The notes under the pieces were generated by a model. That model worked only from the letters and a program-made list of their open reading frames with translations. It was not told the DNA's origin and searched no databases. A program made the translations under genes and the position numbers. This document shows positions 30,281 through 40,032 of a stretch of 64,000 nt of DNA, in pieces (within the stretch, counting starts at the first letter, position 1; every line of letters starts with the position of its first letter). The stretch comes from an uncultured Candidatus Binatia bacterium (GTDB lineage Bacteria > Desulfobacterota > Binatia > UBA9968 > JAJDTQ01). The stretch spans positions 1,568,001-1,632,000 of the forward strand of contig OZ243916.1 of the NCBI GenBank assembly GCA_965213675.1, given 5' to 3'.

Positions 30281-31351
30281 TCAAAAGCCGTACAAGCGCG
30301 CTGGGTTGTCGCTCAGAATCTTGTCGGCCACGCCGGCGGCGAGGACGCCGTCCTGCGACAGTTTGGCGATGGCTTCCATATCGTTGGAATAGTCCGCGTG
30401 CCCGTAGTCGGTGCCGACAATGATGCTGTCCTCGCCCGCATATTCCAGCACGTACGGGAGATCGTCCGTGGTCTGGCACGCCACGTAGATGCGGTTGTCG
30501 CGGAGCAGGTGCTTGTCCGACAGTTCCCGGGGCGCGCCGCGCACGCCGGCCAGGGCGCTGCCGGCGTGTTTGCGCCGAAACGCCAACTCGGCCGCGGTGC
30601 GTATCTGCAGGTCGTTCAGCGCGTAGGGAACCCACTGGGAGGTGGCTTCGACGAAGCACCAGCGCAGATCCGGGAATTTGTCGGGAACACCCTTGTAGAT
30701 GAGATTGTTGAACGCCCCCACGGTGGAAAGCTTGAAGCGCGAGAACGTGTCTTGGAGGAACAGGTCGTAGTGGTCGAAGCTGCCCCCGCCGGCATGCACG
30801 CACATGGGGAGGTCGAGGTCGCTGGCCTCCTGGTATATGGGAAACAGCGTGTCGTCGGAGAGCAGCCGCCCGGCCTCGATGCCGTGCATGAAGACGCCGC
30901 AGGCGCCGTTTGCCTTGCCGAAGTGAATCTCTTCGATGGCCCGGTCCATGGAACGCAGCGGCGCCAGCACCACCCAGCGCAGGCGCCCTCCCCCTTGCTT
31001 CCAGATCTCCGCCAGCCAGCGATTGTAGCCCCGGTACAGCGCCCGCTCCACCTCGGCCCGCGCGGTCAGGGGCCGCAGGAACAGGGTGGGGTAGATCACC
31101 TGGACGTCCACGGACAGCTCGTCCATGTGGGCGATGCGCGCGCCCACGTCGGCCAACTCTCGGGATTCCGCGGTGGTGTTGAGGCCGATATTGGTATTGG
31201 GCACGACGCGCTCGTCGATGCGCCAGTAACGCAACCCCGTGCCTTGCGACACCACCAGGTCGGGGGCGAGGTGGCGGTCCTCCTCGGCCATGAACTCCCA
31301 GGTCTGTTCGTTCTCGATGACGTGCGCATCGGCGTCTATGAACATGGACAT
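30281..31351 (-). CDS. Amidohydrolase_2 family protein
   Basis: IDADAH, CVH, VEA...W and GTDYGHAD. Confidence 0.88.
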   Translation of the reverse strand: MSMFIDADAHVIENEQTWEFMAEEDRHLAPDLVVSQGTGLRYWRIDERVVPNTNIGLNTTAESRELADVGARIAHMDELSVDVQVIYPTLFLRPLTARAEVERALYRGYNRWLAEIWKQGGGRLRWVVLAPLRSMDRAIEEIHFGKANGACGVFMHGIEAGRLLSDDTLFPIYQEASDLDLPMCVHAGGGSFDHYDLFLQDTFSRFKLSTVGAFNNLIYKGVPDKFPDLRWCFVEATSQWVPYALNDLQIRTAAELAFRRKHAGSALAGVRGAPRELSDKHLLRDNRIYVACQTTDDLPYVLEYAGEDSIIVGTDYGHADYSNDMEAIAKLSQDGVLAAGVADKILSDNPARLYGF

Positions 31352-31564
31352 CGTCGTTTCCCTCCAGCGGATTGGTTGGGCCCGGTATCGGGCCGGCGCA
31401 AGCTCCTGGCCAAGACTCATTCTCGCCCAGGAGGCCGTGAAGGTTCAACCCGGCGGCCCTCGCGCATCGTCACTCCATTTGATACAGATTCGACACGTCG
31501 GCCCGGCTGGCTCGCGATCCTTGCGGCGCCATGCGCCGGAACCGGCAGAACGGGAGGTGGACTC

Positions 31565-32413
31565 ATGGCACAGGCAGGCTACGCGCGCCCGGACCTGTTG
31601 ACGGAGACGGACTGGCTGGAGCAGCATCTCGACGACCCGGATCTCCGCATCGTCGACTGCGATCCCTACGACGCCTACCGCCGCGCGCACATCAAGGGCG
31701 CGGTGGGCATTCGCGTGCATCACTACATCAAGCAGCCGGAATACCCCACGGACCCGCGCAAGTACCCGCTGGTGGCGCCCCCGGATACGGCCAGGGAGGT
31801 GCTGGAGAGCCTGGGCATCGGCGAAGGCACCCGCGTCGTGGCCTACGACAGCAACGGATCGCTGTGGGCCGCGCGCCTGTGGTGGGTGTTGCGCTACTAC
31901 GGCCACACCGAAGTGACGGTGCTCAACGGCGGCTGGCAGAAGTGGTTCGACGAAGGACGTCCGACGACCCTCGACGTGCCCGCTCCCGCCTCCGCGACCT
32001 TCCATCCCAAGGCCAACCCGGACTGGGTGTGCACCGTGGACTACGGCGCCGCCCATGTCGGCAACCCGGACGTGGTGTTCCTGGACGTGCGCTCGGACGG
32101 CGAATGGACGGGCGCCAACAACCGCGGCAACCGGCGCGCCGGCCGCATCCCCGGGGCCGTGCACCTGGAATGGCTCAATTTCGTCCACGACAAGCCCTAT
32201 CGGACCTTCAAGGAGGCCGGAGAGTTGCGGAGCCTTTTGGAGCAAGCGGGCGTTCCGCCTGATCGTGAAGTGGTCACCTATTGACAGGGCGGCATCCGTG
32301 CGGCGCACGGAGTCTTCGTCCTGACACTGATGGGTTACGAACGGGCGCGCAACTACGACGGCTCCATGGCCGAATGGGCGAACCGCGACGACACGCCGCT
32401 CGTGCGCGAGTGA
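31565..32413 (+). CDS. Two-domain rhodanese/3-mercaptopyruvate sulfurtransferase, probable selenoprotein (Sec at in-frame TGA 32282-32284)
   Basis: IVDC, AARLWW.L, LNGG...W, LDVRS..E, GRIPGA and EVVTY-[TGA]-QGGIRAA...GYERARNYDGSMAEWANRDDTPL. The TGA occupies the catalytic Cys position, and the conserved C-terminus continues in frame to the TGA at 32411-32413. Confidence 0.88.
32285..32323 (+). promoter_or_regulatory. Putative bacterial SECIS element
   Basis: Upper stem TCCGTGC/GCACGGA (32295-32311) with a GGC loop starting 18 nt after the UGA. Lower stem CAGGGCGG/TCGTCCTG. Confidence 0.7.
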
Positions 32414-32536
32414 GTCGCCTTGCCGCACGCACGCCGTTGGCAACGACCCGCCGCGTGGCGCACCGGCTGATGGGCGGGGGCGCCAACGACGGCAGTGGCA
32501 TGGCTTCTGCCAGCGCCCGTGCCTGAACCGTTGCTC

Positions 32537-33418
32537 ATGACGCTCGAAGAAAGGGAAATCGTCGTGCGCAGGACGCGCGACCACCGTCGGGCGGAGGAGT
32601 GGGCACTGGTGCTGGAGGCGGAAGGCCTGACGCCGCGGCTGTCGCACACGACCAGTGGATGGGTCCTGTCGGTGCCCGCCCATCACCTGGAGCGGGCCGC
32701 CACCGAACTGTGGGCGTACGAGAGCGAGAACCGCGCCGCCCCGGTGGATGAAGATCAGCCTTGGGCGGGGCGGGCTCCGTTCCACACCGGGCTCGGCGTT
32801 GCCGCGGGGTTGATCGCGTTCTTCCTCTTCGCCGCGTGGACTCAGGAAACCGTGCGCTGGGTGGAGCACGGCAACGCGTCGGCCGACTGGATCCTGCGCG
32901 GCCAACTGTGGCGCACGGTCACCGCCCTCACCCTGCACGGCGACTTCCCCCATGTGGCTTCCAACGCGGTGGCCCTGGTCTTCTTCCTGACCGCGGTGTG
33001 CCGTTCCCTGGGGCCCGGGTTGGGCGCGGCCATGGTGCTCGGGGTCGGCGCGCTGGGCAACCTCTTCAACGCCTGGTTTCACGGCTTCGCCCACCAGTCC
33101 GTGGGCGCCTCCACCGCGGTGTTCGGCGCCCTGGGCCTGCTGGGCGCCATCGGCGTCGTCGAGCGCCAGCGGCTCGGGATGCAAGGACGGCGCGCCTGGG
33201 TGCCGTTGGCCGCGGGGGTAGGGATTCTCGCCATGCTCGGCACGGGCGGCCCGCGCGTGGACCTTTGGGCGCATTTCTGGGGCTTCGGCGCCGGCGCCGG
33301 CGCGGGTATCTGCGCGGCCTTGTTCATGGAGCGGCCGGAAAGCGCCACGGCGCAACTCAGGATCGGCGTGGCCGCCGCCGGCGTGGTGGTGCTGTGCTGG
33401 ATCGTGGCGCTGGCGTAA
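32537..33418 (+). CDS. Rhomboid intramembrane serine protease
   Basis: WR.VTAL.LH...H...N, catalytic GAST and AH in the later TM segment, plus an N-terminal soluble domain. Confidence 0.9.
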   Translation: MTLEEREIVVRRTRDHRRAEEWALVLEAEGLTPRLSHTTSGWVLSVPAHHLERAATELWAYESENRAAPVDEDQPWAGRAPFHTGLGVAAGLIAFFLFAAWTQETVRWVEHGNASADWILRGQLWRTVTALTLHGDFPHVASNAVALVFFLTAVCRSLGPGLGAAMVLGVGALGNLFNAWFHGFAHQSVGASTAVFGALGLLGAIGVVERQRLGMQGRRAWVPLAAGVGILAMLGTGGPRVDLWAHFWGFGAGAGAGICAALFMERPESATAQLRIGVAAAGVVVLCWIVALA

Positions 33419-36985: not shown

Positions 36986-38005
36986 TTATTTCTTGCCCGG
37001 CAGCTCCTCGTGGCCGCCGAACTGGAAGCGCATGGCCGAGAGCAGCTTGTCGGCGTAATCCGCCTCGCCGCGGGAGCTGAAGCGCTCGAACAGCGCCGCG
37101 GTGAGCACATGGGCGGGCACCGCCTCGTCCACCGCCGCCTGGATGGTCCAGCGCCCTTCCCCGGAATCCGACACCCGCCCGGCGAAGCGCTCGAGGCCGG
37201 GATCCTCCAGCAGCGCGTTGGCGGTGAGGTCCAGGAGCCACGAAGCCACGACGCTGCCGCGGCGCCACAACTCCGCCACCTCGCCCAGATCGAAGTCGTA
37301 TTGATAGTGCTCCGGCTCCCGCAGCGGAGTCTGCTCCGCGCTGGCCTCGCCGCCCTGCTTGCCCACGTTGGCATGCTTGAGGATGTTGAAGCCCTCGGCG
37401 TAGGCCGCCATGATGCCGTACTCGATGCCGTTGTGGATCATCTTGACGAAGTGGCCGGCGCCGTTGGGGCCGCAGTGCAGGTAGCCGTTTTCGGCGGTCC
37501 CCTTGCCCGGCTCCCGGCCCGGAGTGCGCGGCGCCTCGTCGATGCTGGGCGCCAACGCCGCGAAGATGGGATCGAGATGGCGCACCACGTCGGGCTCGCC
37601 GCCGATCATCTGGCAATAGCCCCGTTCCAGGCCCCACACGCCGCCGCTGGTGCCCACGTCCACATAGTGAATGCCCTTGGCCGCCAACTCCCGGGCGCGA
37701 CGGATGTCGTCGATGTAGTACGAGTTGCCGCCGTCGATGAGAATGTCGTCCTTCTCCAGGTGCTCGACGCAGGACTCGATGGTGCGGTCCACCACGGCCG
37801 CCGGCACCATCATCCACAACGCCCGCGGCCTGTCGAGCTTCGCCATCAGATCCGCCAGCGAGCCGCTTCCCACCGCACCGTCCGCCACCAGTCCCTGGAC
37901 GGCGTCGGCGTGCCTGTCGAAGGCCACCACCTGGTGTCCGGCCTTGATCAGCCGCCGCGCCATGTTGCCGCCCATCCTTCCCAAACCGATGATGCCCAAC
38001 TGCAT
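36986..38005 (-). CDS. gnd: 6-phosphogluconate dehydrogenase (decarboxylating, short form)
   Basis: [39 protein letters not shown] and AMRFQFGGH. Confidence 0.96.
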
Positions 38006-38193
38006 GCCGACCTCCTTCAGTGCAACCGTTTCAGTGCAACCGTTTTCGCACTTCCGGTCTCCCCACCCGTCTCTCGCCCCGTGGAGACCGAACAGACGGT
38101 TGGCATCTTAGCATACCCGGCCGGGCCGGGATGCACCGCCGTTCCCACCCGGACCGTGGCATTGACTCTCGGGATGCGATAGAGTGGCGCGCC

Positions 38194-40032
38194 ATGTACG
38201 TTCCCATTGAAGACTACGGCGTCATCGGCGACCTGCACACCGTCGCCCTGGTGGGGAACCACGGTTCCATCGACTGGTTCTGCTACCCGCGCTTCGATTC
38301 GCCCAGCGTCTTCGGCGCGGTGCTCGACCACACTCGGGGCGGACGCTTCGTCATCGGACCGGATGTGGCCAACGTCACTTGCCGGCAATTGTACCTGCCC
38401 GACACCAACATCCTGATCACGCGCTTCATGACCGAGGAAGGGGTCAGCGAAGTCATGGACTTCATGCCCCCGGGACCGGCGGACGAGAGCTACCACGGGC
38501 GCATCATCCGCATCGCCAAAGTGGTGCGCGGCGCCATGTCGCTCAAACTGGAGTGCGCCCCCGCCTTCGACTACGGGCGCGCCCGCCACACCGTGGAGGT
38601 GCGCGACAACCGGGCCGTGTTCCGTAGCGACCGCTTGGGCTGCATGCTGAACCTTTCCCAGCGCGGGCACCGGGACGTCGTGTCCATGCGCCCAGACGGC
38701 AACGGCGGCGTGGTGGCCAGCGGCACCCTGCGCGAGAACAGTGTGTTGGCCGCGGTATTCCAGGGCACGGACGACCACGGCATGGACGCCGACTGCCCGG
38801 ACGTGGACCACTGTCTCGAGTTGCTGGAAGACACCGAACGGTACTGGCACCGATGGCTGCGGCAGTCCCGCTACAGCGGGCGCTGGCGCGAGATGGTGGA
38901 CCGCTCCGCCCTGGTGCTGAAGCTCCTGTGCTACGAGCCCACCGGCGCCATCGTGGCCGCGCCCACCTGCAGCCTGCCGGAAAACATCGGCGGCGGGCGC
39001 AACTGGGACTATCGCTACACCTGGATCCGCGACGCCAGCTTCAGCCTCTACGGCCTCATGCGCCTGGGCTTCACCGACGAAGCGGCGCGGTTCATGGACT
39101 GGCTCAAGGAGCGCTGTGGCGACCTCAAGCCCGACGGTTCGCTGCAGATCATGTACGGCATCCGCGGCGAGAAAAACATCCCCGAGTCCACCCTCGATCA
39201 CTGGGAAGGCTACCGCCAGTCCGCCCCCGTACGCGTCGGCAACGCCGCCGCCGACCAGCTCCAGCTCGACATCTACGGCGAGATGATGGACTCGGTCTAC
39301 CTCTTCAACAAGTACGGCAGCCCCATCGACTCGGAGCTGTGGAACAACCTGTCGCGGCTGATGGAGTGGGTCTGCGACCACTGGGATCAGGCGGACGAGG
39401 GCATCTGGGAGGTGCGGGGTGGCCGCCAGCACTTCGTCTACTCCAAGCTCATGTGCTGGGTGGCCCTGGATCGGGGCGTGCGCTTGGCGGAGAAGCGCTC
39501 GTTTCCGGCCAACCGGGAGCGCTGGCTCCACAGCCGGGACGCCATCTACCACAGGATCATGGCCGAGGGATTCAACCGCGAACGGAACGCCTTCGTGCAG
39601 GCCTTCGGCAGCGACACCCTGGACGCCAGCAACCTGCTCATGCCGCTGGTGTTCTTCGTCTCCCCCACCGACCCCAAGATGCTGTCCACCCTCGATGCCA
39701 TCAACCGCCCGCCGCACCAGGCCGGGCTGGTGTCGGACAGCCTGGTGTACCGCTACGATGTGGCCCGCACGGACGACGGGGTCGCCGGGGAGGAAGGCAC
39801 CTTCAGCATGTGCACCTTCTGGCTGGTGGAGGCGTTGACGCGCGCCGGCCGGCTCGGCAACGCCCGCTTCATCTTTGAGAAAATGCTGAGCTACGCCAAT
39901 CACCTGGGGCTCTATTCCGAGGAGACCGGCCCGCGCGGCGAGGCCTTGGGTAACTTCCCTCAGGCCTTCACCCACCTGGGCCTCATCAGCGCGGCGTTCA
40001 ACCTCGACCGCAAGCTCGGGTCCAAGGACTGA
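38194..40032 (+). CDS. Glycoside hydrolase family 15 (trehalase/glucoamylase-like)
   Basis: [34 protein letters not shown] and [10 protein letters not shown]. Confidence 0.95.

Follow-up and report, generated by a model that had tools for sequence, protein, structure and literature searches.

An open reading frame in our window (the whole 64,000-nucleotide stretch of Candidatus Binatia DNA that we analyzed) seems to end just before the active site of a rhodanese. Is the TGA codon at its end a stop, or is it read as selenocysteine (Sec)? An earlier note on this DNA had pointed out that the ORF track stops at TGA 32282–32284 and that the frame stays open for another 42 codons, through the motif YDGSMAEW, to position 32413. 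Re-reading the sequence bears this out. The frame runs from ATG 31565 through 239 codons to the TGA at 32282–32284, and then through 42 codons to another TGA at 32411–32413; it reads EVVTY-TGA-QGGIRAAH around the internal codon, with YDGSMAEW further on. The features are listed in Table 1. The host genome has 66% GC, and its assembly is rated as 97.7% complete and 8% contaminated. A scan of 31300–32700 against Rfam gave no matches up to E = 1, a scan for promoters and terminators detected none, and a tRNA search found none within the window.

Table 1. Features of the Sec-rhodanese gene and of other loci discussed in the text. Positions without a locus or contig name are in the window.
Feature	Position	Strand	Basis or remark
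Shine-Dalgarno-like GGAGGT	31553..31558	+	6 nt 5' of ATG 31565; read from the sequence
CDS, 282-aa tandem-domain rhodanese/sulfurtransferase, TGA 32282 = predicted Sec240	31565..32413	+	two PF00581 stretches
N-terminal rhodanese domain, likely non-catalytic	31607..31948	+	PF00581, residues 15-128
C-terminal catalytic rhodanese domain, with the TGA inside	32042..32383	+	PF00581 match with 1 TGA, model, fold search
In-frame TGA, predicted Sec240, opening the active-site loop U-Q-G-G-I-R	32282..32284	+	alignment to catalytic Cys
SECIS-like two-part stem-loop	32285..32323	+	fold, synonymous freeze, Sec-vs-Cys contrast, pair counts
C-terminal rhodanese signature YDGSMAEW, 3' of the TGA	32354..32377	+	read in frame
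True stop codon, TGA in this gene	32411..32413	+	terminal stops compared in 24 orthologs
Cys-form homolog	L093:5001-5789		Chloroflexota locus
TGA-form homolog	L095:3051-3839		Chloroflexota locus
SQR/FCSD-like flavoprotein, in-frame TGA (TI-U-LLSC), G-loop hairpin	L168:3869-6139 = C1:786.9-789.1 kb	-	with MBL-rhodanese fusion
Candidate UGA frames, loci L132-L149	G000 C1: 11973, 182291, 437309, 574234, 1006951, 1183733		
Candidate UGA frames, loci L132-L149, continued	G000 C1: 1241595, 1471380, 1650357, 2286533, 2910602, 2958368		
Candidate UGA frames, loci L132-L149, end	G000 C1: 3020524, 3217531, 3453148, 3533954, 3742746		
Small frame L146, GRGPA-U-PEE	G000 C1:2205402-2205707, TGA 2205488	-	9-bp G-loop hairpin, -18.5 kcal/mol

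The internal codon falls at the position of the catalytic (persulfide-forming) cysteine of two-domain rhodaneses, as the earlier note had stated; alignment to solved structures and a structural model agree on this. Specifically, residue 240 aligns with the active-site cysteine of CRIAER (1uar), CRIGER (3hzu and 3hwi), and CQTHHR (1e0c). According to a passage of PMC6856128, the cysteine of CRIGER is catalytic and the N-terminal domain is inactive in this group of sulfurtransferases. In RhdA, Cys230 stabilizes the persulfide and is required for redox activity, as described in part of PMC3458005. For the AlphaFold2 model, we used an alignment of 64 rows and placed cysteine at position 240; its mean pLDDT is 96.7, and residue 240 lies right after a strand (residues 235–239) and before a helix (residues 244–255). 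The locus L089, which has an internal stop, was left out of alignment A1. With Foldseek, the top folds were the rhodanese 1uar from Thermus thermophilus (TM 0.88) and RhdA (1e0c) from Azotobacter vinelandii (TM 0.88/0.92, rmsd 1.8). A product that ended at Tyr239 would lack the nucleophile, the active-site loop, and the YDGSMAEW signature.

Such a product is what the database contains. The window's own protein (P0002) is stored with 239 amino acids, so the expectation that standard pipelines would cut the gene short was correct. We searched database proteins of 155–494 amino acids and obtained 2982 matches; 116 of the 120 best end at the residue that aligns with Tyr239. Three proteins with C at the site (P0066, P0072, and P0119) were left uncounted as evidence for a cysteine form, although our quick tree labels them C. 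In the case of P0066, truncated proteins from the same cluster are 99% identical to it, and the C is therefore probably a U shown as C.

The internal TGA is conserved across the genus. Full-length orthologs are present in 23 of 24 relatives (81–93% identity), and every one of them has TGA at this column; G017, a 93% complete genome from the genus, has a weak match only. Including the window's gene, all 24 full-length genes have the internal TGA, and their terminal stops vary (TGA in 19, TAA in 3, and TAG in 2). Immediately after the TGA, synonymous change is nearly absent: the fraction of minor synonymous codons is 0.012 for codons 241–253, the lowest value for any stretch of 13 codons in the gene; in the comparison set of 220 conserved codons it is 0.177. 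Because the sequences are related, the p-value of this comparison is overstated and we put no weight on it. Mean pairwise nucleotide identity is 98.7% over the first 39 nucleotides (+1..+39) versus 86.6% over the gene. Codons 254–280 have 94% conservation at the protein level, with 966 synonymous versus 425 non-synonymous pairwise differences. The 42 codons 3' of the TGA are under purifying selection.

The frozen codons coincide with the hairpin that the earlier note had described directly 3' of the UGA, with a G-starting loop 18 nucleotides downstream. We obtained the same fold. In the minimum free energy (MFE) structure of 32282–32330, the lower stem pairs +1..+8 with +32..+39 (32285–32292/32316–32323); this is followed by an internal loop and a perfect 7-bp upper stem (32295–32301/32305–32311) that is capped by a GGC loop (32302–32304). 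The first G of this loop is base 18 after the UGA, which gives a spacing of 17 nucleotides. The energy of this fold is -23.5 kcal/mol (z of -2.58), and 3 of 200 shuffled sequences were equally good. The Fig 2 legend of PMC13188914 gives the bSECIS rule as a loop of 3–9 nt, an upper stem of 4–16 bp, a spacing of 16–37 nt, and an MFE of at most -7.5, with a G in the first two loop positions. By our own script, not bSECISearch, the hairpin lies within these published constraints (3-nt GGC loop, 7 bp, 17-nt spacing, and -23.3 kcal/mol), as the earlier note's claim of a fit to the bacterial SECIS model implies.

Geometry alone says little here, though. The chromosome is GC-rich, and of its 1172 ordinary TGA stops, 200 satisfy a loose rule for bacterial SECIS elements and 25 satisfy a strict version. 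By itself, the hairpin is thus modest or weak evidence; it is conservation, not geometry, that raises it above chance. The earlier note named a conserved hairpin as a test of its reading, and the stem is indeed conserved: six or seven of the seven upper-stem pairs form in 46 of 47 TGA homologs versus just 1 of 59 Cys homologs (excluding L052–L073, 22 loci that are mostly duplicates of the genus genomes; some homologs in the Cys set have similar peptides). Across 25 distinct TGA sequences, 90.4% of cells are paired, and five pairs show two-sided changes. None of 500 shuffles paired as highly, although related sequences are not independent and the shuffle counts overstate the result; controls that were slid along the sequence gave 36–57%. 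The upper stem has three of the two-sided changes, all contributed by a single distant sequence, L150, and pairing is less tight in the lower stem (85.5%).

Alignment of homologs, which had also been proposed as a test, shows TGA paired with TGC or TGT at this column (59 Cys homologs), and the TGA forms comprise 47 distinct homologs from two orders and two phyla. Among 251 genomes drawn from the class, 52 have a match to the TGA form: 15 from the genus, all 35 from family f9, one from family f20, and one (G029) with a distant copy. We saw the position of the TGA in 31 of these 52 genomes; the other 21 are known by the search tool's "1 TGA" flag only. Among the matches listed for the class, all with at least 50% identity carry one TGA. 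SelA is above the cutoff in 51 of the 52 genomes. In the other, G102, a genome that is 97% complete, the TGA gene occurs with selB and a marginal match to tRNA-Sec, and a selA match is absent. However, co-occurrence of selA with the TGA form is a weak test, since 194 of the 251 class genomes have selA.

TGA is also found at five Chloroflexota loci. One of these, L095, forms a natural pair with L093, which has TGC: the two are 86% identical and are sisters in the quick tree. Both of their genomes contain selA and tRNA-Sec; the Cys form has thus been retained in a host that is equipped for Sec. The TGA label requires five changes on the tree, and together with this sister pair, this implies that the exchange of Cys and Sec is recurrent. 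(For the quick tree, the short sequences L079 and L089 were dropped, rows were cut at the Sec site, and most rows had no taxon.) In the tree, the clade from the genus is nested within truncated database proteins, apart from the order's Cys-type paralogs (with CQGGYR). This placement suggests that the Sec-rhodanese may have been gained from outside the order; we do not claim a donor.

The distant copy, L150 (G029:C3:592981-593784), is a divergent TGA-bearing rhodanese (40% identity) with the loop U-H-G-G-A-R. Three pairs of its upper stem are changed, but they still pair, and the GGC loop is kept. It lies on a long branch in the tree and perhaps represents an independent Sec lineage.

The earlier note had proposed a search for selA, selB, selC, and selD, and all four are present in the genome. 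SelA (592.7 bits), selB (378.6 bits), and selD (377.3 bits) are above their cutoffs and adjacent, at C1:2713784-2718389. tRNA-Sec(UCA) is at C1:323213-323307 (75.2 bits; ARAGORN score of 126.6). A second copy of tRNA-Sec lies on contig C4, which duplicates part of C1 (289–326 kb) at ~98% identity, tRNA-Sec included; also, several small contigs repeat genes from C1. These repeats are consistent with strain contamination, and the copy on C4 is likely a strain duplicate. SelD itself has one in-frame TGA (C1:2717493, L010; AAG-U-AAK). Its predicted hairpin is atypical: the nearest loop is CCU, and a stem with a G-loop is found only at a spacing of 33 nt. Of 2052 long ORFs, 1172 end with TGA, more than with any other stop, which shows that the code has not been globally reassigned. 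Two odd tRNA calls near selA sit at the threshold.

If translation really ended at the TGA, or if the TGA were an error of sequencing, then the gene would be a pseudogene or would encode a 239-aa product without the catalytic residue. The database does store the gene, and 116 of the 120 best matches, as ending at this codon. But independent errors or nonsense mutations cannot recur so as to give the identical TGA in 47 distinct homologs from two orders and two phyla, along with purifying selection on the 42 codons downstream and a hairpin that is specific to the TGA forms, and we regard this explanation as extremely improbable. We give equally little credence to decoding of the UGA as Cys or Trp through a special tRNA or an altered code. 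UGA-to-Cys tRNAs do exist in some Deltaproteobacteria, and ARAGORN reported a second, odd 92-nt tRNA-Trp(CCA) ~5 kb from selA. That call scores 100.4, which is at the threshold, and it has mismatched stems and a CCA anticodon; the sole UCA tRNA is the canonical tRNA-Sec. We rejected recoding to Trp or Cys given this tRNA evidence and the use of TGA as a stop. What remains is the main claim of the earlier note, that the UGA is recoded as selenocysteine. It is supported by the Sec machinery, by the TGA in 24/24 genus genes, and by the TGA-specific hairpin, and we predict that TGA 32282–32284 is very likely recoded in this way.

What kind of rhodanese is this? The structural features of tandem-domain sulfurtransferases (rhodanese group II) are present: two domains, a catalytic residue at the strand-helix loop of the C-terminal domain, and both signatures. 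Compared to the signatures given in a section of PMC6856128, the N- and C-terminal signatures have one deviation each (Lys for Pro; Met for Trp/Phe). The same section gives the loop motifs as CRxGx(R/T) for TST and CG(S/T)GVT for MST. The loop UQGGIR has Gln at +1, which departs from the TST motif, while Gly at +3 and Arg at +5 fit; the MST loop is absent. Searching NCBIfam, no model claims the protein above its cutoff. The best match is to the MST model PRK11493, over the full length, at 109.7 bits versus a cutoff of 250. Because the loop fits neither motif fully, the substrate cannot be read off the sequence. We conclude that the protein probably works like a tandem rhodanese and is assignable to neither TST nor MST.

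Among known proteins, the closest in sequence and fold are 1uar and the actinobacterial SseA/CysA2 TSTs (3hzu, 3hwi, and 8k55; E = 2e-46, TM 0.86–0.88). Two residues of the TST motif are common to these enzymes and this protein, Arg at +5 and, in CRIGER, Gly at +3. The enzymes have Cys instead of Sec and Arg instead of Gln at +1, and they are 30–36% identical to this protein. RhdA (1e0c) shares the tandem-domain fold, the place of the catalytic residue, and, in the loop, both Gln (+1) and Arg (+5); it differs in having Cys rather than Sec and the loop CQTHHR instead of UQGGIR, and it is 30% identical. As for the MST SseA (PRK11493/NF008557), relatives of this gene are automatically named thiosulfate/3-mercaptopyruvate sulfurtransferase, but this protein does not have the CG(S/T)GVT loop and its match is below the cutoff.

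Overall, we are fairly confident of an explanation in which this gene encodes a two-domain rhodanese, the TGA is decoded as Sec via the hairpin, and sulfane sulfur is carried on selenium. The first step is nearly certain: SelB would bind the GGC-capped upper stem and deliver Sec-tRNA, which would yield a 282-aa protein with Sec240. By analogy to the chemistry of the family, the protein probably acts by ping-pong transfer, as a housekeeping buffer for sulfane sulfur or redox. The selenolate of Sec240 would attack a sulfane donor (a persulfide, polysulfide, or thiosulfate), the resulting enzyme Se-S intermediate would be held by the U-Q-G-G-I-R loop, and the sulfur would then be handed to an acceptor, which could be a thiol, sulfite, or cyanide. 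This is the only protein of its type that we found in the genome, which fits a housekeeping role. In the literature that we searched, no enzyme Se-S intermediate has been demonstrated in a natural rhodanese.

The main rival accepts that Sec is inserted and holds that the protein's main job is thiol-redox (reduction of peroxides, thiyl radicals, or disulfides) and not the carriage of sulfur. RhdA scavenges glutathione thiyl radicals via Cys230, and its loss leads to oxidative imbalance, according to part of PMC3458005; the in vivo role of RhdA is apparently redox protection, and its loop has the same Gln (+1) and Arg (+5) as that of our protein. Most of the other candidate selenoproteins in the genome have thiol-redox folds. 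Also, Cys32 and Cys156 are the majority residues in alignment A1 and might resolve an oxidized Sec. On the other hand, every close solved fold is a sulfurtransferase, and there is no UxxC or CxxU motif. We consider redox as the main job to be unlikely, but the two roles are not exclusive and can coexist. Another possibility, also with Sec inserted, is a role in carrying selenium, in which the protein would store selenide or perselenide or hand it to SelD. Rhodaneses can bind selenium, and selenium transport by TST has been mentioned as well. The abundance of candidate selenoproteins implies a high demand for selenium in this genome. However, the gene is far from the sel genes (selA is 1.1 Mb away), no sel gene was present in the flanks at the loci examined, and selA is found in 194 of 251 class genomes versus 52 for the TGA form, so that many genomes with selA have no close ortholog. 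A role as a selenium carrier thus seems very unlikely, and we return to a carrier of sulfane sulfur as our preferred explanation.

Gene neighborhoods did not help to choose among these functions. The gene has an amidohydrolase upstream and a rhomboid protein and an SDR downstream, and this arrangement is conserved within the genus only. At 23 more distant loci (L074–L079, L095, L150, and L153–L167, with flanks of just 1.5 kb compared at L153–L167), none has a flanking amidohydrolase or rhomboid; the one exception of any kind is a 26% identical dienelactone-hydrolase paralog in L095. We therefore rejected the neighborhood as a functional clue. At 20 of 22 loci from the genus, an EamA transporter lies between the Sec-rhodanese and rhomboid genes (e.g., L052:5986-6843). 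It is absent from this locus (32414–32540), and its best match in the genome (G000) is 45% identical; the ortholog was not found in the assembly. Elsewhere in the window, at 36986–40032, there is a cluster of ORFs that we take, from the appearance of their sequences, to be glucoamylase-like, 6-phosphogluconate-dehydrogenase-like, and phosphogluconolactonase-like.

A scan of the genome for coding potential identified 18 further UGA-interrupted frames. Of these 18, 17 have matches to redox or selenoprotein families when read through: three GrdB-like, a PrdB-like, two OsmC-like, two Prx, a Prx-like, a Trx-like, a DsbA, ArsC/Spx, UGSC, CMD, DUF3179, a deiodinase-like protein, and a single-domain rhodanese (LY-U-QCPR), the second rhodanese among these proteins. 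Including selD and the Sec-rhodanese, 18 of 20 sites pass the published loose SECIS rule versus 200 of 1172 ordinary stops, but this count is partly circular: we chose the 18 frames by eye on the strength of their redox motifs, and 16 of these frames had already passed a hairpin filter. Two of the GrdB-like genes have the same 7-bp stem and GGC loop, one base further out. Judging by these frames, the genome appears to be rich in selenoproteins, with about 20 further candidates. The small frame L146 has no family match in Pfam or NCBIfam, and it is possibly an undescribed selenoprotein, or due to chance. The genome also encodes a 536-aa protein with four rhodanese domains (L169:1552-3159; G000 C1:619-620.6 kb).

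Another interrupted frame encodes the SQR/FCSD-like flavoprotein, which matches NF049943 with 259.9 bits, below the cutoff of 525. It is directly upstream of a metallo-beta-lactamase-rhodanese (MBL-rhodanese) fusion that resembles persulfide dioxygenase, and the locus is ~810 kb from the Sec-rhodanese gene. These two proteins could be a source and a sink of sulfane sulfur. We speculate about a selenium-based relay for sulfide oxidation, in which the Sec-containing SQR-like protein would pass sulfur to the Sec-rhodanese (as Se-S) and the MBL-rhodanese fusion would oxidize it, but we think that this is quite unlikely. If true, a large clade that is hidden in the databases would share Se-S chemistry.

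The earlier note remarked that Sec-containing rhodanese-like proteins had been predicted before and were little characterized. This is accurate: the gene appears to belong to a selenoprotein family that has been predicted, with the same motif, since 2005, and so it is not new in kind. PMC1088965 describes three selenoprotein genes for "rhodanese-related sulfurtransferase" (COG2897) from the Sargasso Sea. Eight such genes are mentioned for the GOS data in part of PMC2398784, three COG2897 selenoprotein genes from Olavius symbionts in part of PMC1976440, and the rhodanese selenoprotein family is catalogued in a portion of PMC9312934. In excerpts of a 2026 catalogue (PMC13188914), the family is "form 4, UxxG" and is "Predicted with high confidence," not "Experimentally verified." Our protein has what defines this form, a PF00581 domain with UxxG (U-Q-G-G). 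In the excerpted supplement of PMC1088965, Sargasso entry AACY01314374 has TY-u-QGGIRAAH and the stem core CGTGC-GGC-GCA, as here, and AACY01016424 matches our protein at 29 of 43 residues from Tyr239 onward. We judged from the identical 10-residue motif and these 29/43 identities, in a comparison by eye, that the gene is orthologous to the Sargasso founders. Unlike our full-length gene from a 66% GC genome, the Sargasso entries in that supplement are C-terminal fragments from AT-rich marine DNA. In the literature searched, with subscription journals mostly outside it, biochemical work on a natural Sec-rhodanese did not turn up, nor did any paper on the use of selenium by Binatia, including sponge-associated ones.

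The TGA clade that we found is much larger than the gene counts given for the Sargasso Sea (3) and GOS (8) in those papers. A family that was known from a few marine fragments is actually large, and the Sec form is fixed in whole lineages, as in 23 of 24 relatives within the genus and 35 of 35 genomes from another family of the class. Like 116 of the 120 best matches, the stored entry for this protein lacks the catalytic residue and the last 42 residues. With a full-length gene, a confident model, and a natural pair of Cys and Sec forms that are 86% identical, the benefit of selenium to a sulfurtransferase is easily testable.
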